A DNA stretch of 63,966 bases, the filler included, from Perkinsus chesapeaki ATCC PRA-425 (lineage: Eukaryota > Protista > Perkinsozoa), in assembly GCA_013115145.1 (NCBI GenBank). It is 7 parts of 7 records of this genome, joined end to end, with 100 filler letters (N's around TTAATTAATTAA, not from the genome) between each part and the next. Parts side by side here need not be neighbours in the genome. Positions count along the whole stretch, not along the records: positions 1 to 30,330 come from JAAPAO010000437.1; positions 30,431 to 43,250 come from JAAPAO010000803.1; 5 more parts are not named here. One strand, given 5' to 3'. A model generated the notes under the pieces. It ran no database searches. It was not told the origin of the DNA and was given only the letters and a program-made list of their open reading frames with translations. Below, piece after piece: positions 13,790-40,760 of the stretch (positions are counted from its first letter, which is position 1; the number at the start of each line of letters is the position of its first letter). The position numbers were made by a program, and so were the translations under genes.

Positions 13790-16700
13790 TGATTGTAGTT
13801 GAATGTATAACGAGATTCATGTTGAACCATAGCGTGTTTTTATGTTGTTGGGGGTTGAATGCGGGCCTGCTGATGTTTCCTCCTTTGTTACGATGGAGGT
13901 CCGTCTTGGGAATTATGAAACGATTACTTTGTGTAGGGACGAATGAGGTGCCTACATGTGCATTACATTATTAAACAACCGTCGCTGACGTCCATTTTCA
14001 ATGAGAATTAGTGTCATCAACAGCAACAGCTGCTGCTGGGTAGTTGGTTTTGCCTGGGCTGTTTGAATGTACTTAATAAAGTATATATTGATTCGATTAT
14101 GTGTCGAACTTGGTTTTTATATTCGCCAAAATAACAAAAAATTAACTGGTTTGCATAACAGTTTGGGCCACACTGTATATTTCAATGTATAATAATTCAT
14201 CGCCCCGATGATGATGCTCTCGGTTGTGTAGGTATTTCTCTATGTCATGGATTGATATAGCATCCGACCCAAGTGGAGCTTCAGGGAAGTTAACAGTATT
14301 AGATATAGTAGCTGGATGTCGACCTTTACCACCTATATTGCCTGATTCAGCCTATTATTCATTACTGGTTACACCTATACGAGATAATATACGTAATGAG
14401 GGGCTCTAGTGGGGAGGTATCATAGGAAAGCAGCAGCTCTCCAGTGACTTTCGGGAGGGGCCAAGTTTCCTGACACAGGGGGAAATAATTCCTTAAAGGA
14501 TGTAATTCTTTGGATTGTCAGCAGCAGCTGCGGCACAGTCTATTCTTATTGGGGAGCATTATTTGATTTGTGAAAATGCCGGCATCGGCCAAGGAGTCGT
14601 AGAGGAACATCGGGGGAAGATTGTGGTACAAAGTGTCTTATTCTCTCCAGGACCACACTTTTCGTAAGCCGGAAACCTTCTCCGTTATCCTTCAACACTA
14701 ACGGAACCTGCCTCCGTCGGATGACTAAATAAATTACTGGTTCCTGCGTTCGGCATGCGACTGTCAAATTCCCGTCCTCTAGTCTTACTGGGCTTTTAGA
14801 TATTTGGGTACTCAATATTTTTCTCTAAAATCACACAGAAATTTGCCGAAATTTTCAAATATTTTTCGGTCTTCTGTACAGGACAATTCCGGCAGAGTTC
14901 ACTTGGATACGGCACGGTTTCATTATTGTTGTCATTCAGGTCAGCTTCATGCCGCCTTCCACCCCCTCTGCCATATTGGTGTGGTATCTCCGACCGGTGA
15001 GATACCTAATTCGATGAAGAACGGTACGGAGAGGCTAATGCTTGTTGACTGTAAACAACCTGGAAATGGTAGGGAAAAGCCTTTTGCGGAGAAATTTTTC
15101 TGGGGGGAAAGCGACATTTTCAGGTGTGAAACCGCCGGAGGACGTGAATTTGAGAATGCAATTTCGGATTGAGCAATTGAAGCGTTGTATGAATCATCTG
15201 GCAAGGAGCTGTGCGGAGCTGGATATCGAGTTCCATCGGGTAGGTATTTTGTGGCGCGCAGGAATGATGAGATTTTTTTGAATTGTTGTAGTAGTAATTG
15301 CCATTTTGGAATCCATGAATAGAAAACTCTCCTGGAAATAAGCTTCTTCTCTTTCACGAAGATGATGTTTCTCTCATCTTCACCAGGTTAAGTTCCTCCT
15401 ATTATACGATGTCACAGATGTTTTCGGTTTACCACGGCCTATCCCATCCCATCACTACTGTGATGGACACTAGTAGCAGCTAATGTGTTCGTTGAAGTAA
15501 TTCGATTGTGTGCCGAGAAGATCGACACAAGAATTTGGGACAGGTATCTTCCGTAGACGACACCCTAAAAAATAACTTTTGTCGAAAATTTTATTCGTTA
15601 GATGTGGGCCAACAATAGTCTGTCATTTAGAGTGATTTCTTACTGCAATACCTTCATAACTGTAAACAAGATCCGCGGCTCTTTGGTGGGTACGCGTTGA
15701 CCGAGATACATTCGCTGCAGCTGCAGGAGTACCAGACGCGAAATGTAGGTGAAGGTTGGATGTTAACATTCATCTTCGTTCATCAGACTTGGTCGAAGAT
15801 TTTGCAACAAACGAGTTCGAGAGATGGCGAAATATTTGACACGGAGACCTGCCAGAAGATCATTCCGGCGATGTATCGAGTGTTGGTGTATTCGACGACG
15901 ATCATGAGGCTGGCATCGATTGCGGAGTTCGCCGTTGGGGAGTGCGAGAGCTTCTTCAAAGTAAGTTCGGTCGAAGTAACTCCGTAATGACTTGTTCAGT
16001 CTTGGAGAAATCCTGCGGCGAGCTCCTCGCATAAAAAAACGTCGGCGAAGGAGAGTGAAGTGGGAAGCACTTGGCCGGGATCGAGGGCGAAGAGCGATTG
16101 TTTTGATTGGGCACAGGTATCTTAAAATCTTCGCAGTGCGAAGTTCTCAAGGTTGCCCTAGGATGTGTCTGTCGTGGCCCTGACTGGATCCCCGCTGGAT
16201 CGAGCTGTTGGTGATTTCTGTGTCAAGGTGATTCGCTCGGCAGAGTTCCCATTGAACGCTTCAGATGATGGTGAGGTGACTGCTGCTCCATCGCTCCGCT
16301 AGAAAATGTGGCATGTTTACCAGTTTCTGATTTGGAAAGTGTATTGCGACAGCTCCTCAGTGATGATTGGCTCGAGCTCCTCTTGCCACCGGGAACGTGC
16401 CGAATCGAGTGAGTCAATCACACTGTTGAAAAATGTCTAGGGTGGCTTTTGTCAGATACACCGATTACAAAGAGAAGGGCTTTATTCAGCGTTTGGTTGC
16501 TGCGGTGGATCATTTGAGAAAGACTGTCGATGATGTTGTCGATTCCACAAAGGCAGATGGCGGCCACGCTAGTGAACGGAAAACCAGGAGCGTAAGGAAT
16601 GGTGAAGTTATGTTCAGCGGTTTCGGACGAGCGACTCGGACGGTTCACTTGTTAGTTGGCAATTTTCTTCCCCGCATTGTATACGATGATACGGGCGTAG

Positions 16701-17199
16701 TTTTCACGGGGCGTTATTTGTCGTGAACTGGTGAGTTTTATGATGATTACTATTTTCAGGCAATTGTTGCGCTCTGGCGAGATTTACGTCAAACATCTTT
16801 GGATGGTTATCTGCACCATTTCGGATCTTTCGTGGCGCAGTATCCAGCGGTGGTCCAAAAGCCACTCGGTGATCGATTGAGGAAGTAAGTTGTAGTTTAA
16901 AACTTTCGGATTTCTTGAGACGAGAGCAACTCCTTATGCTGGACCGCCAATTGCCCTATCCGCTGCATTCTTGGGAAAATATGAACTTACGAGATTTACA
17001 GTGCTATCATTTTTGTAGGATTCTCGGCCAGGAAGTACGAGTTGATCTGCCCGCTATGAATTTGCATCCTCTTTATCCCTCCGGGCATTGCCTCCGACTG
17101 GTAGAGCTTCAACGTGCTAAAGTGAATGATTCCGCTGTATCCTCCCCACTTGTAAAACCTAGTATCACCCCCGCTCCCCCGATACCGGCACAATGTTGA
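13790..17199 (+). CDS. Large hypothetical multi-exon gene, product unidentified
   Basis: Series of GT-AG-bounded open exons, e.g. FSGVKPPEDVNLRMQFRIEQLKRCMNHLARSCAELDIEFHR, TWSKILQQ...ECESFFK and AIVALWRDLRQTSLDGYLHHFGSFVAQYPAVVQKPLGDRLRK. Ends are approximate. Confidence 0.4.
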
Positions 17200-17996
17200 T
17201 TTCTGTGATAGTTGTTGTTGGGTTCCTATAGTGTAATGCGCGAACGCGTTCAATACCCATATAATCAAGAATCGCGCTTATGGCCAATGGAAGTTTCACC
17301 GTAAAACATAAAGTACATTAGAGCAAATGTAACACGCACAATTGGCAAATTAATATGATAACCAATCCCCAGGGGAACGTATTTTAAGACCTAAGCGATA
17401 TGGGGGCTGTCTAGGCCGGATAATTGAATGATTCAGTGGTCCAAGTCCTGCTGGTATCAATTCAATTTTAATCCCTGGTTACCAGGGCCTGGTAACCGGA
17501 CTTGGTAACTACCGAGCTACTGTCAAAGTGTGGGATATTGTCCAGTTCTTACTGAGAGCTTCTTGGAAACCAGCAGCCTTGCTTGGGTATCAGGATTCTC
17601 TCGCGTTGAGATTAACCTCACAATACGATTATTATGAGATGTATATGATTCGGGGTGCAAATAGAATGATTCCGACATGAATACGATGAAATGAGGAGAA
17701 TCAAAATAGTGCGAACAGAGAATTTACAACGAAGAAAGCGTCGAGCAGGATATCTTACATCACTCTAACGCCACTTTTCTGTATATATGCTTATTTTCGT
17801 TTCGTTATAAGTGTGAATACGATAGTGGTTCAACCAGCATTGGGAGGAGCTCGCGGAGCGCTTTGAAGTAGGGCCTCAAATGGTCTCATACTCGCGCTGG
17901 GAAGTTACTAGGAGGGTCTTTTAAAATGATTCTTTCTATCGATCACCCTATGCCATTGGTGCGACCATATGAGATCTTTCTAAGGTGTAATATTCT

Positions 17997-18848
17997 CTAA
18001 GATATGAATGCAAGTTGGGTCGAATCCAATGTGGATACCAGTCCTAGCGGCGTCATGTCACATTACGGTTCGGCACATTTGAACTCCGATATGAGCCCCG
18101 GAACCAACCATTCCACGCCATTCTCGTTGTTTGGAACATCTTGTGGACATATGTGTCCCCTGAAGTATTATGGATGCCTTCTATTTCTCATTACTAGTTG
18201 GCAGAAGAGAAAGTTTGTTTACAACCTCAGTCTGGCTGGAACCAATTTCATCTCCTAATTGAATTTTTCGCGTTGAGATCAATTAAGTGGCTTCAAACCT
18301 TGCTGACCAGAGCCGGTGTGCGGATCAACAGGTGGAGCATATGATGTTGCATCATTGATGTAGAATACAATGCAGAGAGCGTCAGCACGGGCTTCTGCAG
18401 TTCCTACTCATTCTGCGTTCATTATGAACGGATGAAGGAGGATAATACTTCATTACAGCCGCTAATCTATGCACTGCTGGTCTCGTTATTTACAATCGGA
18501 AATCCATCCCCGTTGCCGACCAGCTCGAGCTTGAGCATCAAGCCTCCAAGGGGGGAGCAATTCCAACACCATTTGGATGACTGTAAATATTAGCTTTTCG
18601 GCTCCCGATGTATGCGTGCGGCAGAGGGCATCATCCTGTTGTACGACTCCATGCTATGGAATAATCTTGACGCAGAAATCGCGCAGTCATGGCGAAGAGC
18701 CCAACAGAGAGGCAGTCAAACCGCACGATATAGAGATATTGCTGGCTCTCCTTCGGAGTCCAAATGTGCCGAACCGTAACGTGACATGACGCCGCTAGAT
18801 CTGGCACGTATCCACCTTGGATTCTACTCGGCTCGCATACATACTTAG
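17997..18848. repeat. Imperfect inverted duplication, arms of about 93 bp (17997-18089 and 18753-18848)
   Basis: TCGGAGT(T/C)CAAATGTGCCGAACCGTAA(T/C)GTGACATGACGCCGCTAG...TATCCAC.TTGGATTC is present on opposite strands. Confidence 0.8.
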
Positions 18849-20065
18849 ATTCATACAAAGTCGTAGGTTGACAGAATTGCAACATCTTAGCAAGATTCCA
18901 TAAGTTGATGTTGTGATACTACGAAAGTCATCGAGCTACGATGATTCAGCACAGATGCGTTTTGACAGAGAATATTATTGCTATTCATGGAATAGATTCC
19001 CTTATACAGCCACTACACCTAAATTATGTTCTTATCTGTGAAGTTTATCTCTGAGTGGTAGAGTTGCCGCGTAACTCCAACAAGGAGCATCTAGGCTGCT
19101 GTGATAGTATTGCCCTCTCATTGGTATGCCGGGTGCGCACCGCACCCGAAAGACTAATGCCTGAGCACACAATCCCACCACAGCGCACAATGACGCTAGT
19201 GGAAGCGGCACCCGGCAGCATAATAGTGTGCTACGTCGCCATTGGGTAACTAATTTTTTTTCTTTCCTGTGAGAGGGAGGTGTTGGCAGCCGCTACCGAG
19301 TATGTTTTCCCACGAGCTGAAGATGATTTGAGTTACTTACTAGTTAACGGGATCGGGTATTAGTCGTTTGTATCTAGCTTCGTTCTGCATAAAGTTGTAT
19401 TCTTAATGAATGGTACCGCTTGATCTTCTTCTGTAGCAGACATTCTGTTATATTCTTCGTGAGAAGTTATATTCTTAAATTCTGTCTTTTGGTTTGCAAC
19501 GGTTCTATCGACAAGTACAGAATGTGTAACATGTTGTGATATTGTGGTAAGCGTGCTATCATGCATATTCTCTACGCTCAGGCATATGTCAGTGCTAAGA
19601 ACCGGGAAGGTATTCTTAGTACTGTAAGTAGTTGCGCTGTGCGCCATAGCTATGCAGTTTACACAGTTGCACGCATATACACTAAGGTTCTTTCTTACAC
19701 CTCTCCGTCAGCTTCGTGTTGGAGTGTATCTCTGGCACACAACAAACAGCAATACCTAGACTTTTCATAGCTATAGCTACAAAACTGGGAAATTCCCCTA
19801 ACTAGAGTGATAACAGAAGCTTAAGGAAGTTGTTATAACTTGATAATTAAAGTCAAGCACTTCGCAGAGTGACCATCCGTCATGGCTTAACTGACAACCA
19901 CTACCAGTAAGTCAGCGAGAGAGCCTCAGTGAGAGTGTGTAGCTTGCACAGTGTAAGATGTTCCAAAAAGTTACCCTGATTTCTGTACGTGCACATGCTT
20001 CTATTCCAGTTGGATTCTTACTGCGCTGTGCGACGCATCTCAAGAAGCCTTCGACACTCGTCAGA

Positions 20066-20630
20066 ATGAATCTCTTCGCGGCTACTGTTACCCTTCTCGG
20101 TGTCTACGTCTGCGGGCAGCCTCCCCCAAATCACCTCGTCGGGAGGGTCTTCACCGTACGCAACGCAGAATGGGTGGTAACCTTCACATTCTCCGACTCG
20201 GAGACCGATTCCCAGGTTAACATGCTCTTCGGGTGGTACGACTTTGATTCAACTGAGTGTACCATACGAGATTGATATCCAAGAACCAAACGAGGCTCGT
20301 CTGTTATGGGACCAAGTTGAAGGGCCGATTGGACGCGAGGAGTTCCATCAGCAGCTTCGAGAAGCCAATCTACTAGACGACGACAATCAATATGGTGGAT
20401 ACATTGATACGATATTCTATAGGGCTGAAGACGCGCCCGATCAAATAAGGGTTCACGCGCTTCTTGAGGAATTGTTTACCCTATTTGAAGTTTTAGTCCA
20501 AGGAGTTGATCCGTATCCGTATCCGAACTATGGATTGGCATTATTGCTCTGCTCGCTACCAACTATCTTCCATCACCACCAAAGTGGACCCCATCGTACT
20601 TTGAGGGAAGATCCTGTCATAACTTTCTGA
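20066..20630 (+). pseudogene. Secreted-protein gene with an apparent frameshift near 20255 (pseudogene or sequencing error)
   Basis: Signal peptide MNLFAATVTLLGVYVCGQPPP. The protein-like sequence switches frame from ...WYDFDST to VPYEIDIQEPNEARLLW..., and no GT-AG intron is evident at the switch. Confidence 0.55.
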
Positions 20631-22010: not shown

Positions 22011-24207
22011 CTACACCGTGAAAATAGGCGATGATGGTGGTGGCATAGAACTGGTGGCTGGCGAATCAGATGGTGATAGTAATGTTGATGAAGCCCATGT
22101 TAGCTGCATATTAGGTAGATACTCTATACGAAAGGCAAAGGCTAAACAACCCAGAAAAATGCCACACAGCGTTCCAACTATAACTTGCTGAAGAGTGTGA
22201 TCCATGTTATACCATCGAGCCCACGGAACCTGATGGCAACAATACATTATATTCGGTAATGGACTGATCAGTCCGTCGTAAATACCTCGTGAATCTACAA
22301 GTGACCTCGCGCAACAAAGCCGATATGAAACACTGATGAAAGGGAGGGAGTTGAACGAATTACAGTTTTGTTTATTCCCACAAGGCATTAATATGCTTCT
22401 GCAATGTACCAAATATGCCGTTATTACTGAGAATATAGGCGATGGTGTACAACCCTTTAAGTTGGACTAGAAGCATCTCTGATCCACGAGTGTTAATTAC
22501 ACAAAAAAGGGGACAAAGTGAAATATCGGCCATATCCGAAAGAACGTGTCTCGGAAGACATTAAGAACCAATTACTGCTCTCGAGGAAGTAATCGCGATA
22601 ATAATCCTCGATAACTACTAAGTGTTAGACCCCAACTTAACTGCACGGCAGTCCTTGAACACTTAATAGAGGAGTAATATGTTCATTCGAGCAGCCCACC
22701 CCAGAACTTACTGGTCCAAATGCTGCCAGTATAAATATTATCCGACCAATCAATTCCTCCATACTGCCCGTGTTAGTTGCTCCACCATGAGAAGCGAACA
22801 AGCCGATGGACTCCAACAGAAACCATGTACCTTACGTACAATTCGTTCGTCGAGTCACAAGTAGACTGAATCTCGATATTTCTTCACGGGATTTCGATAA
22901 GAACACGGGAACTTGTGGCACGCATTATAAGCCTTCTCTTAACCTTTTTTTAGGATCAACAAGGTCTCCTTATCGCGGTGACTATTCCAAGGAGATGCAA
23001 TCGACCCAACAGGAGCTTTACCTCCCTCCCTTGCACTCTGACATTTTCAACTATTACTTTGAATTCTGTGACGACCAATGCTTCCATTGTTTCTCCTCAT
23101 ATGGAACACACTTTCCGCGATATAGGTATTATATAACATAGAAAAATTAAGCACTAGGTTCCAGATGGGACAATACACTGTCAACGTGTGAAATGATATA
23201 ATAGGCCGGAGAAGTTCAATTCATTTGTTATCAGTTAGTTTCCCATATTACAAAGCACTCCCGAAGTGATGCAATGTCCACTAGGCATTCCTGGGCCTTC
23301 ACAGGCACTCTGTGGTGGGCGAGGTTGACCGAAAAAACGTTTAAAAACAGCCTCGTTAAGGAATGATGTTACCAACAGTATAGCCTGACAAAAAGGAATT
23401 CTTTTGGTGGAATACACCATGTTTAAGATTCTTTTAAAGAATCTTAAACATGGTGTATTCGGGAAAGTCGCGTTGTCAATGAGAGTCAATAATGAACAAT
23501 TAACTGGTCCATTTATCGTCTGAGATTAATGCATGGTCCATTGTATCTCAGCTAGATATGATCTAATGATGTATCTCAACTTAACATGCTATTTTATAGA
23601 TAAATTCATATATTAAAGGCTCATCATTGATAGGCAACCTATCTAATGGTTAAATCTATTGTCCAACATATCATTTATAAGGTAATAATCTTAGTGATAC
23701 ATATGATAATTTTATCTATATGAATAATCCATATCATTAGTACACCTCCCCCTCCACAGCCTTTGGCTCCCTATTACGCAGGCGTATGTGTAGACAGCCC
23801 TCCGTGTGGTAAGCATTAATATTGTAAGTGTTGCTGGTACAATCCATGGAATGAAGCCATATGCCTCGGCCACAGCCATTAAAGGTGGAGCAGGCACTCG
23901 TATGGTCACTTGGCCTAGCTCGAACACTGACCGATAATTCAGATTATCTGGCAATACGGAGATGACTGCTAAGGCCAATTGCATTTTAACTACCTGGATG
24001 CTCCTTGCCGCGCAGTACTACTTCCTGCGGTGGTGTTCCTTGACCAGATTCTAAGTCGATCTCCAGGGGAGCATATTTGACAGATCCCTCTACAGTCGGG
24101 GCGCAATCCTTCTGTAGAGCAATCGTCGATGATGACATATAGAACAAGCTGTAGAATAGTAATCATAACAAACCTTCCCTTATGGATCTCGGACTTGCTG
24201 CTGTCAT
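22011..24207 (-). CDS. PAP2-superfamily phosphatase, dolichyldiphosphatase (DOLPP1/Cwh8)-like
   Basis: Spliced reading from ATG at 24207 (MTAASPRSIREEGSVKYAPLEIDLESG...). It contains C1 K-x6-RP (KRFFGQPRP), C2 PSGH (GMPSGHC) and C3 AR-x5-H-x3-Q (VPWARWYNMDHTLQQVIVG), plus several TM helices. About six exons. Confidence 0.85.
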
Positions 24208-25107: not shown

Positions 25108-27677
25108 ATGGGACTTCTTTGCTCGAAAGACTTATTCAAATCATTTGCCGATTCGGAGGACTTCCCGGTAATAAATAAACATCACCGGGACTCGAACCCG
25201 GGCGATGCTAATAGCAAACCTGGACGCTTACCATTTGAGCTACACCTTAGATTGAAAATCGCCCACCAGAAGGGGAGGCGGCTGATATACGAGACTATTA
25301 CGTCCTCGGAGAAAAGATTGGGAGCGGGGCGTATGGCCAGGTAAGATGTGTTTGGAATGGATGTGAGTTCTAAAGATGTCTTGTAGGTAAGAAAATGCCA
25401 TTGTGTGGAGACTGGCGACCTTTATGCCGTGAAGATATTGGCAGTTGAAAGACCAGACAGAGATTACAATCAGGTGGGATCGAACCTGTGCGGGTTTCGG
25501 TGTACCGGGTATAGGTACGAGCGACGGTTGCCAACGAAGTGTACGTCCTTAGCAAACTGAACCATCCAAATGTCTGCAAGTAGCGTATGTTTGCCGTCTA
25601 TTAAGGGAATGCTTACCGACGTTTAGGCCTCGGGAGTTCTTTGAGGATGAATACTTCTATTATCAAGTCATGCAAATGTACGGTCCGCCAGTATTCACTG
25701 GGCTCAATGCCAAGTACTGATGCACGGAAGGCGACCTATCTTATATCTTGCATGCTTCGACGTTAGATTCGCGCCTACTATGCGGTATCGGGATGGCAGT
25801 GAGCCCCTGCTGGCTGTGAGGTTGCCGGAGTACCGCATCGCGGAGCTGGTGAGATCTGCATTGAAGGCCTGTGCTCATATTCACAGTCATAGGATAGTGT
25901 AAGAAGTATCTTTGGGTTGAGCATGCAAGATATGAAACATGTAAAATCCGTTCTCCTCTCAGTCATCGAGATATAAAGGGAGATAACTTTCTCTTTGCAA
26001 GTGATGATGTTGCCAGAGGAGAGCTTGTCATGGTTGACTTTGGCCTGGCCATTGAACGTAAGCCATTCTTCCCTGAACTATACAATACTCTTTCACAGCT
26101 GTCATAGTATCTCTGACTACGGGTCACCTTCTCCTTGGTAACTAGTATTACGAAGTCTTTTTTTGTATTTCGTAAGATTCTGTTTTTGCTTGCTGCTATG
26201 TGGTCAATAATGTATAGTTGAATGCCTGATCGATTATGAGTCATCATTACCGATTTATTGTATTCCTTCAGTCACGAGCGAGGAGCCCATCAGGCGAGCA
26301 TGTGGGACAGTGAGATGGGTAGCACCTGAAATGCTTCAAGGAGGATATAACAGTGGATCCGTTGATATCTGGGCCGTTGGTGTTTTAATGTAAGAAGTTG
26401 TTGAAGCACCCACCACTAATAATAGTACAACCTTATAATGCTGAGCCACCAATAACTTAATTAACGATTAAATCATATCCTTGTTTACCAATTGCAACGC
26501 TCTGTCTTCCCTGTCCTCGCGAACATGTGCTCTTTTATCATCCCTCTCACCTTCGATGAGGGCATCTTGCTCAACTTTACTAACTTGGCATGGGAGCCAT
26601 GATCCCGGTCTCGATTACTGCTATCATCGAGTATTCGCGCAAAATGTTGGACATTATGTTCAGCACCGTTGGAGGGATCACTTTCCCCTTCCAAGCTGTC
26701 CTGGTATCAATCATATGAATTTACCGTGTAAATGACACGGTAAATGTGGAATTAGTATCCTCGGCTTCATTTGCACTCATAGATTGATCGAGGCGTCTGA
26801 AGTTGAAATGTCCCACATCTCCTCTTCCTTGTTGTATTTTGCAGGTACATCCTCGTGTACGGTTGTTACCCCTATGATGGTAAAGTGGTCCATGAGGTCT
26901 TAGAGAAGATACTTTGCGTGAGTGTGGAGAAGGACAATGGCGTTGATGTCGATGCTGCTACTGTTTCAGTACGAACCCGCCTGGCAACCAGTACATTCGC
27001 AATGGGAACCAAGTATAGAAACGAGGAAGTGAGGATTGTGTATCGACCTATTATGTATCTTGCACGCTTGACCTTAGATTCATGCGAAGGTTGATGATGA
27101 AAGACCCTCGGAAGAGACTAACAGCGAAGCAAGCTTTGAGAGATAACTGGTAAGAAATGCGCCAAGAGATAATACGATTGCCGGGTTTGATCCTGGGTCT
27201 TACGCTTGACAAGGCACATGCTTAACTCCGCCGCCAAATTGCCTTGTTCATCAGGTTCATGGTAATAGGCAAGACCAAACCGCCAGAAGTCATAGTGGCT
27301 GATCGAGTCGCCAAGGCCGCCCAGAAGGAAGCTGCGAGGCTGAAAAAGGCGGAGCGAAGCACAACCGATGCAATCTCCCAAAGCCATCTGGAAAGGGAGC
27401 CGTCCCCGGCCAGCGAGTGAGTCATTCTGGACACATTGGTTGAGCATTTCCCGTCAGAGCTGAGTTTTCGATGGTTCCGGGCTCGTCGATAGCAGCCACG
27501 AGGGGTGACGCAGAATCGATAAGGGATGATGATATGAGTGTTGGCGGATCATTGCATGAATCCGAGGTTGGAAAAATGCAGGGTATGGGAGTCGAACCTG
27601 CGCTCTTCAGAGTCAACAAGAAGGCCATACTGAGGATGTTATTGAAGATGAAGCTGGGGAGGATGGTGTCCGAGTGA
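25108..27677 (+). CDS. Ser/Thr protein kinase, CAMK/CDPK-like, with N-terminal myristoylation/palmitoylation motif and no EF-hands seen
   Basis: MGLLCSK N-terminus. Spliced motifs: YVLGEKIGSGAYGQV, YAVK, LNHPNV, HRDIKGDNFL, VDFGLA, CGTVRWVAPEML, DIWAVGVLMYIL and DPRKRLTAKQAL. The stop is at 27633 or 27677 depending on a possible 28-nt intron at 27583-27610. Confidence 0.92.
25177..25249 (-). pseudogene. Decayed tRNA-like element, antisense within kinase intron 1 (25168-25250)
   Basis: The minus strand has an A-box-like TAGCTCAAATGG and a perfect T-arm CCGGG-TTCGAGT-CCCGG at tRNA-like spacing. The acceptor and anticodon stems do not pair. Confidence 0.75.
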
Positions 27678-27875
27678 GGCTGGTGCATTGTGATTCATCT
27701 GTTGAATAATAATAACGACTTGCTTACATTATGTATCGTCTGTATGCCTGAAATAGTAAAGAGTCTTGGAGTACCTGTTTCAAGGAATTACTCTCCTGCA
27801 CTCCTCATTCTCGAGGGCAAATACGATACAATATTTGATATAAAGTTCGCAACTTGAACGATCGGTTTCGGTGCC

Positions 27876-30110
27876 ATGTACAAAGCCTATCGCCATTCCT
27901 CATCGCGTTGTCTACTTGTGCGCATGCGTACAAGTTGCACAATTCTTAGGCGCCAGTCGAAGATACCAAGAAGCCCCTAGATGCCAAAGATCCTCCGCTT
28001 GCTTCGCCGAGAGGATTCCGCACCGCCTCACCTCAGGCGACTTCGAGCGATGCCCCTCTGGACCCGACAAGGTGGCTACGAGCATCGGTTCCATCCGGAA
28101 TGACGCGACATGGCAGGTTCATTTCGTTGCTGCCGAGCAACCATCAAAGGGAAGACAGAGAGGTGGAGAAGGAAGCGTCCGCGGCGGCGATGACACCGAG
28201 GGTGGACTGGGATAGCTTTTCTGACACCTCTAGCTGTGTTGCTAGGTGAAGAAGATCCTGAAAGACATTCGTGTGGAGCTGAGGAACGACTTGGATGTTG
28301 ATGATGGTCTAGATGTTTATGACGGAGATGAAGAAGGTGCGCTGGCCGGGGATCGAACCTGCGGCCTCGGACTCTTGGTTGTAGGAGCCTCCAAAGAAGA
28401 GGTGCCGCTGCCATCGTCTGTGGATTCGCCCAAGGGTGGCCCTCCGGCACCGTCCAGCGAATCATCGACGAAGCGACGACGATTGAAAAAGGTAGGATTT
28501 CATCGACGACAGAAATATCAGTCATCGATTCGCGATAGTAACATGATTGCAGTATATAGCACTGGTGCAAGGTTGAGACTGCTTCTGATGTTCAAGCGGC
28601 CCAAATGATAACTGTTTCTAATAACGTCCAGAAAATGATACGCTTTACTTTCGAACTTTCGCCGGCTGTCTAGATGTTCAGTCGAATAAGCTTTGCTCTG
28701 TGCAATTGGAATCCAAGCTACTGAGGATATTCTTCCGGCTGCGATAAAGTATCTTCTTACGTTAGGAGCAACTAAGACAAGATTCGAAGAACTTTGAGAC
28801 CAAAGCAGATAATCTTCTTGAAAAGCTGAGAGCTGAGTAAGCTGCGCGTCGCCGCTGAGCCGCGCTGGAATATTTTGCGATATCGCAGCAGCAATGACCT
28901 AATGGTTATCACCACCACTCAAGAAGAAGGCCATTTCTTTGAACATGATATTTCGATTAAGAGCGCATTTCCGCCTCCCTCGTGCGGTGGTCTGTCATTT
29001 TCTTGTTTCAGCCACGAGCATGGTGTACGGAGAGGTAACAGGATAGCAGGCTTCTCAGTGGAGAGGACGGCTCTCGCACCAGGTGGGTGCTGGAATGGCA
29101 ATAGGTTTGATGGTTTGCTCTGATCAGGTCCGAACAAGAACCCTCTCGGAGATAATCGTTTTATATCATCCCCACCGAATGCCAATATTACTAACAGCAC
29201 AAGCGAAATGAGCAATGAAAGGGCGAATGTAAGGCAGAGGATTTCAGACCTTCTCCCTTCAAGGCTTTTCGATTAGGTCTTGGCGTTCCGGTCTGTGTTA
29301 CCGAGAGGAGCCCTCAATTTCCAGACGATTGAGAGTGGACCTGTGAAGAGGGTGTCATTGGAAGGAATTGAGGAAAAGGTGAGAGAAATACTCTGGGCGG
29401 GACTTGAACCCGCAACCTTTGGATTAGAAGTCCAACGCTCTATCCGATTGAGCCACCAGAGCTGATGATTATTTCGTATTGTTAGATCTTCTCTCAATTT
29501 CAGGACGGTTCCCATGACAGCCGAAGAAGCTCTAAAGCATCATGTAAGTTCAGAATGTTCACACGACCTCATCGATTCATTCTGGGACGCTTCGAGATGA
29601 TCCTAATCGAGCAGGGCCCTGCTCTTCGACAATTAATATCATCCAACCATCTGTCATCATTATGATGGTCGTGCTGCTGCTATCAGTTTGTATCTGTCGG
29701 AGAGGATCTACCACTTATATTGTTACTATTTGTTACTTATTATTACAATCTACCTCCACCCATTTCGGAAATGGGGCTGTCTCACACTTGTCGTCGTCTT
29801 GTTGCATAAGCTTTCCAGTTGACGGTTTTTGAAGCCGTAGTAGGATTGGTAGCCTCTTAAGGAAGTCATTTACAAAATCTGTCGCCAGCTTGATCAATTT
29901 AGTTACCAAGAACCAGACATGGCACGCGCCCCTGGAGGAAAAGCAAAATAGAAGTAAGCCAAGAAGCTACCGCTCGCTGATGAAGTGATTTATTCGGTGT
30001 TTAGCGAAAGCCCGTCGAAGGAAGAGTATATTGGAAGGCGAGGCAGCGAGTGCTGAGGAACCGGAATCGGAGCAAGCCTCGAGTCAACGGTAAGATACTC
30101 ACTGCGCACT
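27876..30110 (+). CDS. Hypothetical multi-exon low-complexity protein, 3' end probably cut by the contig end; hosts tRNA-Arg in an intron
   Basis: Open exons include PVEDTKKPLDAKDPP, VKKILKDIRVELRNDLD...DEEG|ASKEEVPLP, TIESGPVKRVSLEGIEEK|IFSQFQDGSHDSRRSSKAS and KARRRKSILEGEAASAEEPESEQ, bounded by GT-AG introns. Confidence 0.5.
28338..28372 (-). pseudogene. tRNA 3'-half remnant (tRNA-Gly-like), antisense in the 48-nt intron 28337-28384
   Basis: The minus strand reads GAGGCCGCAGGTTCGATCCCCGGCCAGCGCA-CC, with canonical spacing from the B-box to the discriminator position. Confidence 0.65.
29389..29462 (-). tRNA. trnR-UCU: tRNA-Arg(UCU), intronless, 74 nt
   Basis: Full cloverleaf: GCTCTGG TG GCTC AATCGGATA GAGC G TTGGA CTTCTAA TCCAA AGGTT GCGGG TTCAAGT CCCGC CCAGAGT A, followed by a T-rich trailer. 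Confidence 0.97.
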
Positions 30111-30253
30111 CTGAAGAATTCAAGGATCCGTATCCCGTGTTTTTCTGCAATTTTTATCTGAGTTGTAAAAGTGAAGAGCTGTGAGTAGTGCTGATTGAAT
30201 TACACTGGTTAGTTAACAACCTTTAATAACCGAATATACCGTTCTGTTCTTTA

Positions 30254-30330
30254 CCATCTATCAGTTCTCTTCTATCGTTACAGTTCTTTCCCATCTATCA
30301 GTTCTCTTCTATCGTTACAGTTCTTTCCCA
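30254..30330. repeat. 37-bp tandem repeat running into the contig end
   Basis: CCATCTATCAGTTCTCTTCTATCGTTACAGTTCTTTC at 30254 and 30291. Confidence 0.85.
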
Positions 30331-30430
30331 NNNNNNNNNNNNNNNNNNNNNNNNNNNNNNNNNNNNNNNNNNNNTTAATTAATTAANNNNNNNNNNNNNN
30401 NNNNNNNNNNNNNNNNNNNNNNNNNNNNNN
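30331..30430. other. Artificial contig linker N44-TTAATTAATTAA-N44
   Basis: Six-frame stop spacer at 30375-30386. Confidence 0.99.
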
Positions 30431-30530
30431 TATCAAACTCCTTTCTATTATATCTCCTCCTCCGTATCACTAGTAGCATATTTCCTATCAAACTCCTTTC
30501 TATCACATCTCCTCCTCCGTTTAACTAGTA
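30431..30530. repeat. About 55-bp tandem duplication at the contig start
   Basis: TATCAAACTCCTTTCTAT.A.ATCTCCTCCTCCGT at 30431 and 30486. Confidence 0.8.
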
Positions 30531-32213: not shown

Positions 32214-33026
32214 ATGAGTATCGTGGTAGCCGCCAGAGCACGTCCAGAATGTACAGCTGAGTCCCATACGAAACCCACTCCACTAACCAGAAGATTGAGA
32301 GAGCTTTTGCTGGACAATCTTTTGTTCGATGTGCCCGACTCGGGTAGCCCGAGTCCGCCGAACGCTTCGAATCCTGCCCGAGTCCACAATGATGGTGCAT
32401 CGGCTATGCCCGTCCTTGCCAACAGAGCTCGTCTAAAGATTCCAACTTCCAATTACGCACCCAATGTTCATTAAACCAATTCTGAGATTCAGAATCGATT
32501 CCAGCATCGCATTTTACGTGTTAAAAGCAGTTCTGGAATCGATTCTGAATTTCAAAATCGGTTTGTTGAACGATCCCGCAATGCATATCGATTATCTGGG
32601 CGCACGCTTTCTTTATTAATGCAACGTGACGCGTCTACTGCGTTACGTTACGTTAGTTTTTACAGATTTTCCGGTACAGACTTTATGGACTCTACCGAGC
32701 ATAGACGTTTCGATGATGAGGAGGAGCTTCTACGTTATTTCAGTCGTACGGCCGAGGCGTATTTTGCGCACTGTGAAGATTTTTTGTTCTCAGTGAACCC
32801 CACTGGCCGCGCACCCTCTTCCAACACCGAAGATAGCGGCACAGTACTGACCGAACTTGTCGGTTTTCATCATTACTTCATTCAGAGCAAAAGTCAGCAA
32901 GCTTCGAGCAAGCAGGCTGGTAGTTTAAAGGGGGGTGAGGAATCTTGTCTGAAGACGATTCCGTGCCCGAAGGCCGCCAATCCAGAGCACCAGGACATGT
33001 TGGAATCGGTACATGTTAGTATATAG
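32214..33026 (+). CDS. Hypothetical protein (two open segments separated by a fold-back element)
   Basis: ORFs 32205-32474 and 32619-33026 have protein-like composition. Splicing was not resolved. Confidence 0.4.
32466..32572. repeat. Fold-back/MITE-like inverted repeat
   Basis: Arms 32473-32504 and 32533-32564 match at 29 of 32 positions, with a 28-nt spacer. No clear TSD. Confidence 0.75.
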
Positions 33027-33110
33027 TATTTAATTAATATATGGTTATAGATATGGCCTCTGGTTATGGAGGGAGTGGATGAGAAAATGCAGCATATGGA
33101 GAGGGTAATC

Positions 33111-33343
33111 AGGTTAACCTCTCAAATATCTTTTGAAGGTTAACCACTAAAATATCTTTTGAAGGTTAACCTCTAAAATATCTTTTGAAGGTTAACCTCT
33201 TAAATATCTTTTGAAGGTTAACCTCTTAAATATCTTTTGAAGGTTAACGTATCTTCTGAAGGTTAACGTATCTTTTGAAGCTCAACGTATCTTTTGAAGG
33301 TTTACGTATCTTTTGAAGGTTTACGTATCTTTTAAAGGTTAAC
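33111..33343. repeat. Two-period minisatellite: 5 x 26 bp followed by 5 x 19 bp
   Basis: AGGTTAACCTCT.AAATATCTTTTGA at 33111-33240, then AGGTTAACGTATCTTTTGA at 33241-33335. Confidence 0.93.
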
Positions 33344-33455
33344 TTGAATTTCCAATTGAGTCTCAGCAAAACGCATTTGGATCGAAAGATTCCTTTGAGG
33401 TCGACTCGTATACTCCCTTTCCTTGTAGGCATTGATCAAAAGGCATAACATCAAG

Positions 33456-36400
33456 ATGATGAATGAGATGCAGGAGGTTGTACGGCAAATATCAGCGGCG
33501 AAAACTAGGAATGAAGAGGTGCGGGGATGGATCGAACTCGGGACCTTTTGGTTTCGTAGATTTGGACTTTGCCAGGTCCTACTCGCCTATAACGCCTGCC
33601 TTGGAGAGCTTGCTCGAGCTCTGACCGACCTATCGGAGAAACAGGAAAGCTCTAAAGACAATGAGGAGCTTAAAAGGCACATTAATCAATTGAGGCAGCA
33701 CTTGAATATGAGGTGGGATAGGTCCCGGGTTCGATCCTCAGTAACGGAATCTCTGTAGATGTGGCCAGACCACTGAGCAAGTGGCTCAATTGAAGCAGTC
33801 TGTAATAATTACTCTCCAGCGTGAGAGGGCCGATATGCAACAAAGGTAATTCACCGCGTCGCTCCGCCGCTGCCGTCGGTGGTGGTATATTCCGTTTGTA
33901 GGGTGTCGCAACTTATCCGCAACGATTTGGCTATTGTGATTCAGCAATGCGATCGTCGCTTGAAAGAGGAGCATTCACAAGTGGGCTATCTGGGGTGTCG
34001 AGAGATATCTTGTAGTCCTCTAATTTCAGGTACTCGCTCTTAAGAAAGTCTTAAAGCAGCTTTGTAGTTCGATAAGTGGCGCTGAAGGTCTAACTAATGA
34101 GGTGATAATAAAGCACCGCCTGGGGATCGAACCTGTGCCATCTTCAGCTTCCAGACGATGAGGGTCCAACATCTTCTACTTTGGAAGCTTCCAAGTTGCT
34201 TGGGGACGCCTCGAGAATGATGACGGCGGCGTCGGCGTCCAATCAACAGCAGCAACAACAACCTCGCGCGCAACAGCAGCAACAACAAGTAGGCGATGCT
34301 GGGCAGACAGTCGGGAGATGTTTTTCGACCAGATGTCCGCGGTTAACTCCGGACCGCTCGGCGGTCGTCCGCAGACGCAGCAGCAAAGCACGATGCCTGC
34401 CGCTTCGAACGCTTCACCTGCTGGCTCGTCGGCCACAGGAGCGTCTATTCCGACCGGGCAATTCAATCACAATCAACCAGTGAGGCGCGCGACGCTCTTT
34501 GTCAGCTAAGTATGGTTTAGGGCAACTCGGCGGCGGCGGCGGCGCAACAGATGGCTTTGAGTAAGCGGATCGCAGAGCTTATCAAACGGCAAGGTAAGGG
34601 TAGTGGGCACCATTTTGGGAATGTCATCGGCGGTAACTCGGTCAATGCGAGGGGCGGCGCGTTTTACGGCATCACATGGCGCATATGTGGACATTTTCGG
34701 GAATGTGTTGGCTGGAGTGACGAGGCGTTCAGGGACTACTGGTGGCATGTATCTATAAGGTAGACAAGAGGGCTTTGGTGGTGTATCTGAAACGGCGCCT
34801 GGTGACTCTGGGGCACCCGGGTTCAACGCGCACCTTCTGATATGTCACTATTCTTAGTTGCATTCACCTGCGTGCAGTGGCGCAACTAGGGTCAAACATT
34901 TGAAAAACTTTCTTCAGGGCCCCGCCGGGCCGAAGGCCGGAAGGGGCCCCGGCCAGTGTCAGCAGTGTGAATCGGATGGGCCCCAATCGATGCCCGAACT
35001 TCAGGGTCCACGCACGGGAAATCAAGCTAGTTGCGGCCCCGCTTGCGTGGCACGAAATTATGATGTGCTACAATACATAGTTCGCCATCGTTATAGAAGA
35101 AATAATGATTAGCGGCTTATCTGTTGTTGTTTTCATCGTCTCACAATAACGATTCTCAGGCGGAAGCCTCTCGTCCCAACCGGCATTCGCCCAACTTCTG
35201 GGTCATCTGCCGCCACAACAACAGCAACAACTACAACAGCTATTACAACAGCAACAGAGATCATTCGTCCCTGGGAATCAATCAACTCAGCAGGTAGGTT
35301 AGCGCGCGATAGGCTCGACGGGGAATGTATAGCCAGACCTCGGCGGCGGCGGGCAGGACCATGAGTGCTGCGGCAGTTCAACAGCAGCAGCAGCAACGCG
35401 CTATGGGTGAGAATACCTCTGGTGGAGTAACGGAGCCATGATGTGGCAAGGTATGACTCTAGGGCAGCAAGCTTCGCAACAGCAGCAACAGCAGCAGCAA
35501 AGCACGGGCGTTTGCCCCTTGATGGGCACCTTTGGATGGTGCAAGTTTGGCGATAGTTGCCAGTAGGAGGGATATTCATGAGGCGATTGGAATTGAGCGG
35601 CGTAGGTTTGTTCACACTACGACCAATCGAGAACCGCTTCGACATCTTCCGGGGAATATGACCGCTCAGCTGCAACAGCAACTTGCGCCACAGGTCAGTC
35701 AGCTAAATGAGAAAATCGATCATCTGATCGATTTGAGTCCAGGTCCTTTCGGGACAAATAACTACCTGCGCAGAGCTCATGAGGGCTATTGCCAACACCG
35801 GCGCAGCGAAGCAACTGCAACAGCAGCAAGGCGGTCAAGCTCAAAGGACGGCCCAACAGCAGCCCACTGCGAGCGTAGGCATGCAAAGTGGTTGGTGGGT
35901 AGCAGAAGCCTTGATTTAGGGCTCCGCTTCCTCCTTGTCGTCCTCATCAACAACAGCTCAACAGGATTTGATAGCCGCGCAGATAACTCATCAGCAGGAG
36001 GCTGCATCCATGGGGGCGGCGAAGGCGAAGAGTATCCCGTGCAAGTTTGACAGTTCGGGCCAGTAGGAATCGGGAATCGGCAGTAGAGATGATTCGCTCC
36101 CAATACCTGGGAAAATCTAGTACACGGGCCACCCCATCTCCCATAGCACAGAAAGATATCCTATGAAGCGTTCTAAGTCCGGCGGAGGGGCACAGTGGAG
36201 TTTTTGGTGGACCGAAGGAAAGGAGATTTTTTGTTGGGGCACCTGATGGTGGTGGAATACGGTGACTTTTAATAATCTGTTTGTAGAATCTGGATGGGTT
36301 CTTGATTTTATTACTATTGTAGTTCATAATAGAACATATACGTTATGGTAGTAAAATATTGTTAATAGGAATGTAACTCACTCGATCGATGTGGTCGGGA

Positions 36401-36827
36401 TGTAGCTCGATTCGTGGTAGAGTCCATCGGTCCTCCCTCGGTCAGATGCGCCTATGGTTCCCGGTGTGCTTATAAACATGCCGACAAAGAAGCAAAAGCT
36501 GGACAAGTTGGAAGCAGCAGCACTTACAGTAGAGATCAGCAGGATGAGCAGCCAACAGCTGCCGCGATATTGGCGGCTATGACCAGGGAGCAGAGCAATA
36601 ATAATAATATTAATCAGGTCGGAGCGGCGGCGGTGGCGTCTGGCGTGGTTATAGGCTGTAGTCCGCGCTACAATGGACTACACCGCGCGTCAAATTTTTA
36701 TCAACTCGTGTTTTTCAAGGGTCTAAGAACAACTAAGGTGTGCTCATCAACGAGTCCCTCAAGGATATGTTCCCTAGTCAAAATAAGTATATCCTCCGAA
36801 CTTCAGAGTCAACCTCCTTGTCAGTAG
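33456..36827 (+). CDS. Coiled-coil, poly-Q protein with two CCCH zinc fingers (probable RNA-binding protein)
   Basis: Spliced finger 1 is CPLMGTFGWCKFGDSCQ|FVH (C-x8-C-x5-C-x3-H, 35513-35615). Finger 2 is CKFDSSGQ|CAYGSRCAYKH (C-x7-C-x5-C-x3-H, 36040-36479). N-terminal coiled-coil exons and Q-runs. Both ends are uncertain. Confidence 0.75.
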
Positions 36828-37238
36828 TGAGTAGTTAAAAGAATTGTGCAAAATCGGTGCGACACATTCTTAGAAACCACAGCTTGAAAATGCACGCAAA
36901 ATTCATGTTTTTTGTTAAGTATATTAAAGCAGACACTTGAGACCTAATCACATACACCATTGGAAAGCTCATTCTTCCTTCACTAAATGACATGAGTTTC
37001 GTAACATTTCGGATTTTCGAAAGACACGAGTTGATAAGTAATTGACGCGCGGTGTAGTTGTGCATAATAGGTTACATTAATAAATAGTTAGTGGTACTTG
37101 AATCTGTATTCCTGTACCCGAGTCTCTATTATACTTATAGGATCTGATGTCAAATGTTATAAGGGAGTGTTATATGGAAGAGTCTGAAGCGATGAAGTGT
37201 GAATTCTGGCTCTAGTGAAGAGCTTTGACATTTCCGCG

Positions 37239-38030
37239 ATGAGATCTATGGTGATCGTTCTTCTTTTAGGGCTCTTCGCAAGGACGCACTTCTTTGTTGA
37301 CTGTAATACAGCAACAACGACAGGAACAACGAAGTGAACAAACAGGTAGTAGCATTCGGACATGCTTTGTGGTACTCTTCGGGACATGATCATGCAGAAT
37401 CCAAGCATGCGAGTGAGGCGGCGGTGGCAGAGGGGGGTTCTCTTACCGCCGGCGGAGGCATCTCGAGCGCAAAGAATGGAGAAGCTGTTAGCACTGAGGC
37501 GGTTACGAGCGCTTGGCTGAAAGATCGTAAGATTGTTCACGGGTTTTCGAAAACCCGAAACCCATTTGGCTACGGCTCAGATCTGTCGGGAACCGCATGG
37601 GCAGAGAAGCTAGATATCACCAAGAGTAATAACAAACCGCAATCTGGGGTGGCGGGATCGGCGAAAGAGGGCCCATCAAGTTCGGGAAGTTCCGGCTCGG
37701 CAGCGGCTGCTCCACCGTCGTCCCCTCCTCCAGCGGGATCTCCAGCCGGTGAGAGCGAGGATGTTGAGAGCGAGACGGAGGTAAGTATCGGACGCCGCCG
37801 ACTTGTGAATGGTATTTCGTTGGTCGTATTAGGTTGAAATGACCGTTGATTTCGGTAAAGTTGTCGACGATTCTTCGAAGAATATTGGAAAGGATTGTAG
37901 TGGAAACAACGGTGATGAGAGCGGTGGTGGCAGCAGTGGGGATGACAGTGGCCCTCCTCCCGGTACGAGTGATGCTGTATTTGTGTATGATTTTCATTAG
38001 GGTTTTAGGTCTTTGACGCTTCTCCCGCTA
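37239..38030 (+). CDS. Hypothetical secreted Ser/Ala/Gly-rich protein
   Basis: Signal-like MRSMVIVLLLGLFA at 37239 and a long open low-complexity exon (ORF 37334-37837). Confidence 0.4.
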
Positions 38031-40164
38031 ATTTAAAGAATGTTGGTGACCGTCATCATTATAAAATAACCGAATTCTTTTACTAGTAGCCAAGACGAGG
38101 ACTGATTTCAGCTTTTGGTCTTTGGTGGCTAAAATCTTCTTGCCCCATTGTTGGTCTACGATATTAACAGTTTTACATTCCTCCTCCTCCTACTCCACCT
38201 CCTGTACAACTCTACCGATCCTTCAGTTGGTAGAGTTAGCGAGTATATACGCCAGAACGGCGGCCGCCAGCAACACGGACCCATTTCGTTGAAGAGTCTT
38301 GTCGGCTCATAGTAGCAACTTTCCAGTTGTGCTCAATGTTACGTTGTTAATCTTAACTTCGAGGCAATTGGAATTGTTCCCATCGCTGCCAAGCGGTGGA
38401 AGCCGTTGGTCGCACTTTTGTGCATGAGAAGTTTGAAAGATGAGTGTAGCAACTCGATGAACATGTTGTGAAATAGATATATGTAGAGTAATAGAGATAG
38501 GAGTAAGAGTAAGTATTAAGTAGTTATTAAGTAGTAGTAAGTATGTATTAAGTAGTTATCAAGTAGTAGTAAGAGGATTAAGTAGTAAGAGTGTAGAGTA
38601 AGTAGATAATGTGTAGTAATTTGGAGATAAGTATCTACAAGTAGGATGGTGTTGCTTGCGCTTTGTGAAGAGGTGTGATTTATGGAAAAGGGGAAAGCTT
38701 GTAAAGTTGAGAGTATTACGCTTCCTCATTGCTACGAAAAGTTGTATTTAACGCGTTCCTGTACTGTACAAGATGCTTACATCACAATATCGCATGTAGT
38801 CGCGATGGAGCACCGTACGTGATCGTTGGGGAGAGGCTCGGACCGTGGCACGAGTGAAAGCAATACTGAAACTAGGATATATATTTCCTGGGAGGGTGGG
38901 GGGGGGAAGAAATCAGAAAACTGCTTAGCTTACGATACGGTTGATAAGGCCCCGCTCTGCACGTTAAGCTGTAGTCGTGGTGCGCTCCCCCACGATGAGC
39001 GCTGATACGCTATTCAACAACATATTCGCGGCTTCGATCTGCTACCATGAAACTATTGACGGGTGAGTGACGTCAGCACGCATGGGCGATCGCAGCCTAT
39101 CAGACAGCAACGCTTGCACTGTCTGGAGCGTTGGTAGTTGCAATGGGTTATATCCAAGCAGTAGATTATGGATAACACGATTCTTTGACGGAAAGTGTCG
39201 TCATTATTTGCCAATCAGAAACCTGTTCCAAGTGACCGTGCAACACGGTCAAAGCAGCCTTTTCCCAATAAAGAAAAAGAGAACTCAGGTTTCCGCGGAA
39301 TCTCCGAGCTGGGATGAAGCTTTGGATGTAATCCCGTGGCGAACAGGATAAACTCCTTATATGGATTGAGGAAGATTTATATCAGGAACGTCGCTCGCCG
39401 AAAAGAACGTTCACAGTTCAAAATGCGCGATGCAGAACTAAGCACACGCAAATTCCCCCTGCTAGGAGCTTGTTAACCCAAACAAATCAGCCTACGTTGG
39501 AGTATCTGCCTAGCGCAAACACAATTTAATGCTGCAAGCACAAAACTTGCGCGGTGATGCGTAGTAGGCCATCACCGTCTGGTGGGGACGATCAAGAACA
39601 CCCGAATAGGCAGTCAGACGAGCTGCCTCTGGAGAAGAATTCGCGCAAGTCCTACTAAAGTATCGAGGAGAGCCGAGGAGCTTGTAGGAGTCTTTTGAGA
39701 GCGGAAGTTAAATATCGTATAGTTGAATATTAATGTTGACAATTTTTGGAACATATCCGAACCCTCCGCCTTATGGAAGGCGACAGGAAGAGCGTCGTTA
39801 CGACGCCGGCGTATGGGACATCGCTACACTGCAAACTTCGCAAAAGTGCTCTGCAAAAATTGCCCTACACGGAAAAAGTATGACAATAATTATATGACGA
39901 ATTGAGCGGAATTGATCAAACCCGAATTTAACTCAATTGAGCGGCAGCATACGAGCCATACTCCTTCACACATCCTTCATTCACAGAGGAACAATAATCT
40001 ATTGATTTAGCATACCGATAGATGTCGTTAAATAATATTGAATATGTCCCATCCCTCACGAACAATCCTTCCTGGAAGAGTCTTCCAAGTCGGAATTTCC
40101 AACGCCAGTCCGCTCATTATACACAGAGTCAAAGTTAGTAAGAATAGAACATGGTCAATCAGGT

Positions 40165-40674
40165 CAGGGTGGCAGGTTTCATTCTTTCTTCCGGAAAGAA
40201 TTTCTATTTTCCCGAAAGAAAGAATGTCTATTTTTCCTCGGACAAATAGGAAAAATAGCCACTCAAACAGAAGGCCTAGCACGTAGGAAGGCTCTTACAA
40301 ATAGCGCAATACGCTTATAATGCACGGCACTACGGATCTAGTATCCACGAGGTTGAGAAGAAACCATAAAAATAGATGGCTCTTATACCAGGGATCGAAC
40401 CCGCTCCTTTCTCGTCTGGGGGTATGCCTCAGCAAAAATTATCTGCCTAGGCATCCGAATACGCTAAGCTTGTAGTAATTTATTGCATTATCTTAACTCT
40501 AATAGTATGCTCCATCTCTATGATGCGCATAATTAATGACTCCAGTCCTATTTAAACAAATTTTGTTTAACAAAATTCCCATGATTTTTTATTTTTCTCT
40601 ATTTTTCGTATTTTTCCGAAACAAGAATAGCATGAAGGAAAGAATCGCTATTTTTCTTCCCACCGGCCACCCTG
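40165..40674. mobile_element. Non-autonomous hAT-type MITE, 510 bp
   Basis: 13-bp TIRs with one mismatch (CAGGGTGGCAGGT and the reverse complement of ACCGGCCACCCTG). Perfect 8-bp TSD AATCAGGT at 40157-40164 and 40675-40682. Repeated subterminal CTATTTT(T)C motifs. No transposase ORF. Confidence 0.93.
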
Positions 40675-40760
40675 AATCAGGTCCTGGTGGCAAGCCTTTT
40701 GCTACACCTTGTGTTACACAAGTCAAGTACACTGAGTACAGTACTTGATGTCAGTTTGAC

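Follow-up and report, generated by a model that had tools for sequence, protein, structure and literature searches.

Antisense tRNA remnants in short introns of two Perkinsus chesapeaki genes and the possible retention of their B-boxes as TFIIIC sites

RESULTS

Two host genes and their intronic elements

We analysed a stretch of 63,966 nucleotides (nt), referred to here as the window, from Perkinsus chesapeaki ATCC PRA-425 (assembly GCA_013115145.1), in which short introns of two protein-coding genes contain the T-arm of a tRNA gene with its B-box, the box bound by TFIIIC, nearly always antisense to the host gene. By their sequence these elements are 3' ends of tRNA genes, and their boxes are possibly kept as TFIIIC sites. 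The window was chosen for its cluster of such boxes, and all counts refer to the window only. Introns are predicted from their GT-AG ends and from public gene models and, for five of the introns with tRNA relics, from the need to keep the reading frame. The public P. chesapeaki models on the window, which are gene predictions, are P0003, P0006, and P0013; the first two host the elements listed below with their donor-to-box distances in nt.

25108..30090, + strand: host gene 1, Ser/Thr protein kinase (P0003), 24 introns, partial at the contig end; exact model match, Pfam Pkinase
25168..25250, + strand: intron 1 of the kinase gene, 83 nt; antisense decayed near-full-length tRNA-like unit with A-box 25231-25242 and exact B-box 25188-25198
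25474..25514, + strand: intron 3, 41 nt, within the kinase domain; exact antisense B-box 25476-25486, donor-to-box 2
27567..27610, + strand: intron 13, 44 nt; antisense tRNA 3' half with exact B-box 27588-27598, donor-to-box 21
28337..28384, + strand: intron 17, 48 nt; exact antisense B-box 28349-28359, donor-to-box 12
29389..29462, - strand: intact tRNA-Arg(TCT), 74.6 bits, antisense in intron 22 (29379-29503); box 29400-29410, donor-to-box 21
32685..37997, + strand: host gene 2, glutamine-rich CCCH zinc-finger protein (P0006), 22 introns; exact model match, Pfam zf-CCCH
33519..33575, + strand: intron of the CCCH gene, 57 nt; antisense relic of variable loop and T-loop at 33528-33538, two mismatches, donor-to-box 9
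33713..33758, + strand: intron of the CCCH gene, 46 nt; sense relic, box 33728-33738, one mismatch
34102..34147, + strand: intron of the CCCH gene, 46 nt; exact antisense B-box 34123-34133, donor-to-box 21

A tRNA or relic is thus carried by 8 of the 46 introns of the two genes. The sequence-only reading of this DNA had placed the elements in unrelated genes at large; the eight of them fall in only two, five in the kinase gene (with the tRNA-Arg) and three in the CCCH gene. It had also predicted six of the introns (25168-25250, 25474-25514, 28337-28384, 33519-33575, 33713-33758, and 34102-34147) exactly as they are spliced out in the public models, while a seventh, proposed as 27583-27610, has to be replaced by 27567-27610, hence its donor-to-box distance of 21. 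The tRNA-Arg is indeed intronic, with the acceptor at 29503 in the public model and not at 29485, which is another AG. Removal restores an open frame, as had been claimed, for five relic introns, and does not do so for 28337-28384 and 33519-33575 because both are in frame and free of stops on read-through. The 25474-25514 intron is needed for frame, and P. olseni proteins align across it without a gap.

The kinase exon at 25768-25896 has a 100% match in a P. chesapeaki protein and 74% matches in P. olseni proteins. The kinase model ends at the contig end, a 100-base spacer (30331-30430) separates it from the CCCH gene, and nothing in the window matches the C-terminal part of the P. olseni kinase. 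Therefore, the adjacency of the two genes is uncertain, and the contig join at 30090-30430 may hide sequence. RNA contigs of two runs yielded no joint across any of the element introns, which they did not cover, and so speak neither for nor against their splicing; they gave a joint at 15238-15630, unrelated to these introns. Scans of metagenomes found neither the kinase locus nor a match to the relic pattern.

Frequency of the box in introns and exons

The antisense motif GGRNTCGAACC occurs exactly at 25188, 25476, 27588, 28349, 34123, and 40391, all on one strand, as had been read from the sequence. Its rarity by chance also held, at a lower figure than the 0.5 hits first estimated: shuffled sequences gave a mean of 0.12 and a maximum of 2 against the 6 observed. 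Two of the near matches reported earlier stand, namely the sense copy at 33728 (one mismatch) and the copy at 33528 (two mismatches); the third, at 16077, had been taken as intronic and lies inside the annotated exon 16000-16116 of P0013, where a 57-nt in-frame intron is possible.

For introns and exons we used the B-box consensus GGTTCRANYCC. The first scan covered 42 of the 46 introns of the two genes, 6 of which contained the antisense box without mismatch, where 200 dinucleotide shuffles gave 0.01 on average, and none of which contained an exact sense box; the exons of the two host genes had no match with up to one mismatch. When all 46 introns were classed by their best antisense match, 6 had no mismatch, 2 had one, and 4 had two, where shuffles predict 0, 0.27, and 4.15. 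Both one-mismatch cases are near-palindromic, and one of them is better read as sense. A sequence model built from 11 elements recovered nothing below E 0.01 in the window other than its own training set, and ARAGORN relaxed to 60-80% returned noise.

The elements as a graded series of tRNA remnants

The tRNA origin proposed earlier was supported by the tRNA register of the elements, in which the T-loop, the acceptor end, and a T-rich trailer are colinear, and by a graded series that starts from an intact gene. The series runs from the tRNA-Arg, through the near-full-length unit in 25168-25250 and the 3' halves in introns of 44-48 nt, to the fragment at 25474, which is cut two bases past the box. 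The tRNA-Arg lies within an intron, has both A- and B-box, and folds into a full cloverleaf, as expected of a nested gene, and is the sole tRNA found at default thresholds. The remaining elements gave no Rfam call (nothing else in the window did) and no default-threshold ARAGORN call, and none forms a complete cloverleaf. The unit in 25168-25250 has a fully paired T-stem, a T-rich tail, and a donor-to-box distance of 20, and is called by ARAGORN only at a noise-level threshold. The 3' halves keep the box and YGC, the latter at positions 70-72 in all three mini-intron relics that reach that far; two keep a T-rich trailer, and in the 27567-27610 relic a discriminator A is followed by a T5 terminator. 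The donor of 28337-28384 coincides exactly with the tRNA 3' end. Exact 12-nt A-boxes are present solely in the two near-full-length units and never alone; four of the five exact intronic boxes beyond the tRNA-Arg lack one, which fits the definition of extra TFIIIC (ETC) and chromosome-organizing clamp (COC) sites as B-boxes without a working tRNA gene.

The donor-to-box distances of the seven antisense elements are, in order, 20, 2, 21, 12, 21 (the tRNA), 9, and 21. The nearly fixed spacing noted earlier therefore stands, with the count raised from three introns to four of seven at 20-21 nt (P ~0.004 under uniform placement, post hoc). This spacing is the sum of the 11 bases between the box and the tRNA end and a trailer of 9-10 bases, which may itself represent the space needed for a donor and a terminator. 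No covariation was seen in the T-stem. A tRNA-derived short interspersed element (SINE) was also considered, and neither a SINE body nor further copies were found in the window. Two of the CCCH relics, 33529-33545 and 33721-33737, lie across one exon from each other as an inverted match of 16/17 nt and could pair in the pre-mRNA.

Other features of the window

14242-17196: third public model, P0013, 10 introns
27150..27254, + strand: intron 11 of the kinase gene; near-palindromic one-mismatch box 27183-27194 of ambiguous orientation, marginal (E 3.1)
40391..40401, - strand: exact B-box that belongs to none of the mapped genes; tRNA position 73 is followed after 7 nt by a T5 run
6292..6375, - strand: near-intact pseudogene resembling tRNA-Leu(CAA), in none of the mapped genes, called by ARAGORN at the 95% threshold

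The box at 40391 had been assigned to a copy of a miniature inverted-repeat transposable element (MITE). Imperfect inverted repeats of 14-21 nt do flank it, and a second copy is absent from the window; around the box, 40157-40692 contains nested short inverted and direct repeats. In the region 388-439 (+ strand), the bases 422-439 match 18 bases at the donor end of intron 25168 exactly in inverted orientation, and a colinear 9-base match to the other end of the same intron is also present; the 18-nt match is marginal, since 1 of 40 shuffled queries reached its score and 12 of 100 simulated contigs held an 18-mer repeat. Elsewhere, 18038-18804 is a MITE-like element with 52-base terminal inverted repeats that are 92% complementary, and perfect palindromes with arms of 21-32 bases and a one-base centre lie at 3302-3366, 6500-6562, 23410-23460, and 40761-40803. 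Arrays of 26-base and 19-base tandem units occupy 33085-33362 within an intron of the CCCH gene. A minus-strand gene at 22156-23905 is matched by two classes of spliced RNA contigs, one exact and one with many differences, which suggests a paralogue or a second allele. The region 43400-55800 (- strand) is AT-rich, differs strongly in composition, contains repeated exons resembling RNA-binding domains (by eye and from repeat families), and has no exact B-box.

Decay of the tRNA body around the box

Exact boxes are present in four mini-intron relics, whose outer T-stems retain just 2 of 12 pairs. In a model with substitutions only, this requires a change of ~40% per site (P 0.03 for <=2/11 pairs), and for every exact relic the same model predicts ~6 with one mismatch and ~15 with two. 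Neutral decay is disfavoured because these predicted relics exceed the capacity of 46 introns and are absent from the counts.

A second test comes from P. olseni. The first 11 residues of the partial P. olseni model P0014 (KAF4758653.1) replace an exon of the complete P. olseni models and are followed by the exon that aligns after intron 27567-27610. If these residues are a read-through of the intron, an exact antisense box fits its last 33 nt solely at offset 10, which is the offset in the P. chesapeaki intron, so that the distance to the acceptor would be equal in both species. Random stop-free read-throughs permit the box with a chance of 3.3e-4 at that offset and 4.3e-3 at any offset. Moreover, 4 of the last 6 residues of the segment equal a read-through of the window intron, while the flanking exons share 15 of 57 residues (26%) with P. 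olseni. Such a segment was found once among the 12 Perkinsus models scanned, and the alignment on which intron orthology depends is loose by ~1 residue. A frameshift of the upstream exon was ruled out as the source of the P0014 peptide. The box of 27567-27610 was thus apparently kept in the matching P. olseni intron, as judged from the encoded peptide. The P. marinus model P0030 has a box-like peptide close to the tRNA-Arg intron, which we rejected because it is incompatible with an exact box and aligns with an exon.

DISCUSSION

The intronic elements are real, and they are a variant of nested tRNA genes and ETC-like relics. We propose that they are tRNA relics whose B-box is likely kept by purifying selection as a TFIIIC site, in a manner analogous to yeast ETC9, and we give this reading a probability of about one half. 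The earlier suggestion that the box persists after the tRNA body decays agrees with the gap between mismatch classes, the unpaired T-stems, and the inference from P0014. Of the two options the sequence-only reading had left standing, an intronic TFIIIC site is favoured, and tRNA-seeded intron gain has circumstantial signs (the donor AG and one similar intron pair).

A mechanism of four steps may be outlined. A tRNA gene would first come to lie antisense in an intron, about 10 nt separating the donor from the tRNA 3' end, as is seen in the tRNA-Arg; selection would likely act against sense copies, since these would be excised from the pre-mRNA. The 5' half and the pairing of the T-stem would then be lost and the intron would shrink to 41-57 nt, these states being seen and their order presumed. 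The 11-nt box, a few adjacent bases, and often the T-rich tail would be retained, as the two tests described above suggest. Finally, bound TFIIIC would affect the host gene or the local chromatin as a roadblock, an insulator, or a nucleosome positioner. Two TFIIIC subunits were detected in all eukaryotes sequenced at the time of an earlier survey, apicomplexans included, in an account that does not extend to the box-binding subunit (PMC1540719).

Several observations weigh against selection on the box as a TFIIIC site. Retention is not universal, as the box is damaged in the pseudogene 6292-6375 and in the relic at 33528. The elements are confined to two genes, and the ten introns of P0013 hold no box with up to one mismatch. 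All six exact intronic boxes face the same way, which is unexplained by a DNA-binding factor alone: such a factor does not require a bias, although the bias follows if the parents were antisense. Bases 48, 50, and 51, which lie outside the box, are identical in 4/4 relics, as would be expected of a shared master, a role at the RNA level, or a constraint that extends past the box. The test of decay was made post hoc, uses substitutions only and four relics, and is suggestive in view of a model that lacks deletions and a window picked for its cluster; and the P. olseni box is deduced from one protein model, not from DNA. Decay of CpG was considered as the cause of the shared bases 50-51 and rejected (observed/expected CpG of 1.06 in introns).

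It is conceivable that the relics are neutral debris, with nested tRNA genes arising and dying often and only those relics being recognised whose box has not been hit. The search was indeed conditioned on the box, damaged boxes do occur at 6304, 33528, and 33728, and the pseudogene at 6292-6375, with its cloverleaf kept and its T-loop and B-box mutated, is an example of ordinary decay. Turnover of nested tRNA genes is described as fast in Caenorhabditis, and P. marinus is reported to have >500 copies in five tRNA types (PMC3342880, PMC3706591). Nevertheless, debris of this kind should not leave six exact boxes with almost no surplus of near matches, nor a box apparently retained in P. olseni despite flanking exons that are 26% identical, and we regard this explanation as rather unlikely.

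The uniform orientation of the six boxes raises the alternative that the antisense T-arm acts in the RNA, where, as a branch region or a factor site for example, it would aid the spliceosome on introns that are very short and have weak donors. The conserved stretch runs beyond the box toward the acceptor (16 nt are identical between the relics at 25476 and 34123), the acceptor distance is the same in P. chesapeaki and P. olseni, and a RAG donor is found in 1 of 8 element introns as opposed to 18 of 38 others (P 0.12). On the other hand, relics differ in their distance from box to acceptor (12 to 52 nt), what is conserved is the sequence of a DNA promoter element, folding is no better than that of shuffles (z -1.7 to +0.7 in seven introns), and the exact box at 40391 lies outside the mapped genes. 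We regard a splicing element of this kind as improbable.

A question of origin, which can coexist with that of TFIIIC binding, is whether the relics created the introns, that is, whether tRNA 3' halves or a tRNA-derived mobile element inserted at exonic AG|GT and brought splice signals with them in an introner-like manner. The introns 27567 and 34102, in different genes, are 32/44 identical end to end and are the top of 496 short-intron pairs; none of 5000 shuffles that kept the box and splice sites reached their score of 16, although an ordinary intron pair scored 13. Their acceptors fall at tRNA positions 40 and 38, the sequence inferred beside the P. olseni acceptor is compatible with a variable loop, and the donor of 28337 stands exactly at a tRNA 3' end. 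New introns tend toward stronger exonic signals, and an exonic AG precedes the donor in 7 of 8 element introns compared with 11 of 38 others (P 0.004), but among weak-donor introns only, the contrast drops to P 0.07. The phase bias is not significant (6/8 vs 17/38, P 0.24), and by eye the ends show no duplication beyond ordinary AG|GT. Multiple near-identical intron copies, by which introners are known, were not found in the window, and since acceptor-arm bases 66-69 vary among relics there is no young family. Furthermore, the positions of introns 28337 and 29379 coincide with breaks in the P. olseni models P0011 and P0005, respectively, and P0014 reads through the match to 27567; three positions seemingly common to P. 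olseni make the introns appear older than the species split, which speaks against recent gain. We hold it unlikely that the introns arose in this way.

A possible source of 3' halves is provided by the Dada transposons of P. marinus, which target tRNA-Ile, Leu, Gly, and Tyr genes, split them by insertion at the A-box, and leave the 3' part that bears the B-box (PMC3706591). No Dada sequence was seen beside the relics, and none was searched for. The same account describes unusually many tRNA genes in P. marinus, and the introns of this species are reported to be mostly <100 bases (PMC3101222).

Compared with known systems, relics kept as TFIIIC sites come closest to ETC9 and the ETC and COC sites, which are likewise a decayed tRNA gene or a lone B-box and are kept across species, as the relics may be. 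Yeast ETC9, which lies upstream of TIM21, is described as a tRNA pseudogene to which TFIIIC and TFIIIB are recruited and whose box, when mutated, alters the neighbouring transcript (PMC4228148), and ETC boxes are reported to be conserved across Saccharomyces (PMC3395662). As they are described, however, the original eight yeast sites are intergenic, mostly between divergent genes, and have a 10-base 3' extension, whereas the Perkinsus boxes, as putative TFIIIC sites, fill introns of 41-57 nt with up to 5 per gene. In Caenorhabditis, 43-44% of tRNA genes are reported to be nested, in either orientation, and nested genes are described as arising, dying, and leaving pseudogenes (PMC3342880, PMC4999229), and the tRNA-Arg at 29389-29462 is a nested gene of the same kind. 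Host genes there mostly remain unaltered when a tRNA gene is gained or lost, and in the portions of these accounts concerned with nesting neither selective B-box retention nor relics making up the bulk of a mini-intron are described. The antisense MIR SINE in intron 1 of Polr3e, which represses Polr3e according to its description (PMC5358760), is similarly a conserved RNA polymerase III (Pol III) element antisense in an intron. In contrast, MIR is presented as a transcribed full unit, and of the relics just 25168-25250 has both boxes; most are not standard type 2 units because they lack an A-box. Introners resemble the relics in that short introns of different genes are reported to be similar end to end (PMC9860276, PMC12130899), but the window relics form no near-identical family and have no duplication signature. 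Literature searches brought up no paper on intronic tRNA relics or TFIIIC in Perkinsus; a paper on the P. chesapeaki genome, which they did not bring up either, might bear on novelty.

If the relics are neutral, they would merely be a record of high turnover of tRNA genes. If they also made introns, tRNA genes would be a source of introns for which the main texts of the two introner surveys have no words, as neither tRNA, SINE, nor Perkinsus appears in them (PMC9860276, PMC12130899). In its broadest and doubtful form, the proposal would be that tRNA 3' halves gave rise to a large class of mini-introns, with the acceptor at 38-40 and the donor beside the terminator, kept as a dense intragenic TFIIIC array that organises chromatin in the sister lineage of dinoflagellates. 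Should the boxes bind TFIIIC, Pol III factor sites would be dense inside the coding genes of Perkinsus, a lineage next to the dinoflagellates, unlike the few intergenic ETC sites of yeast.

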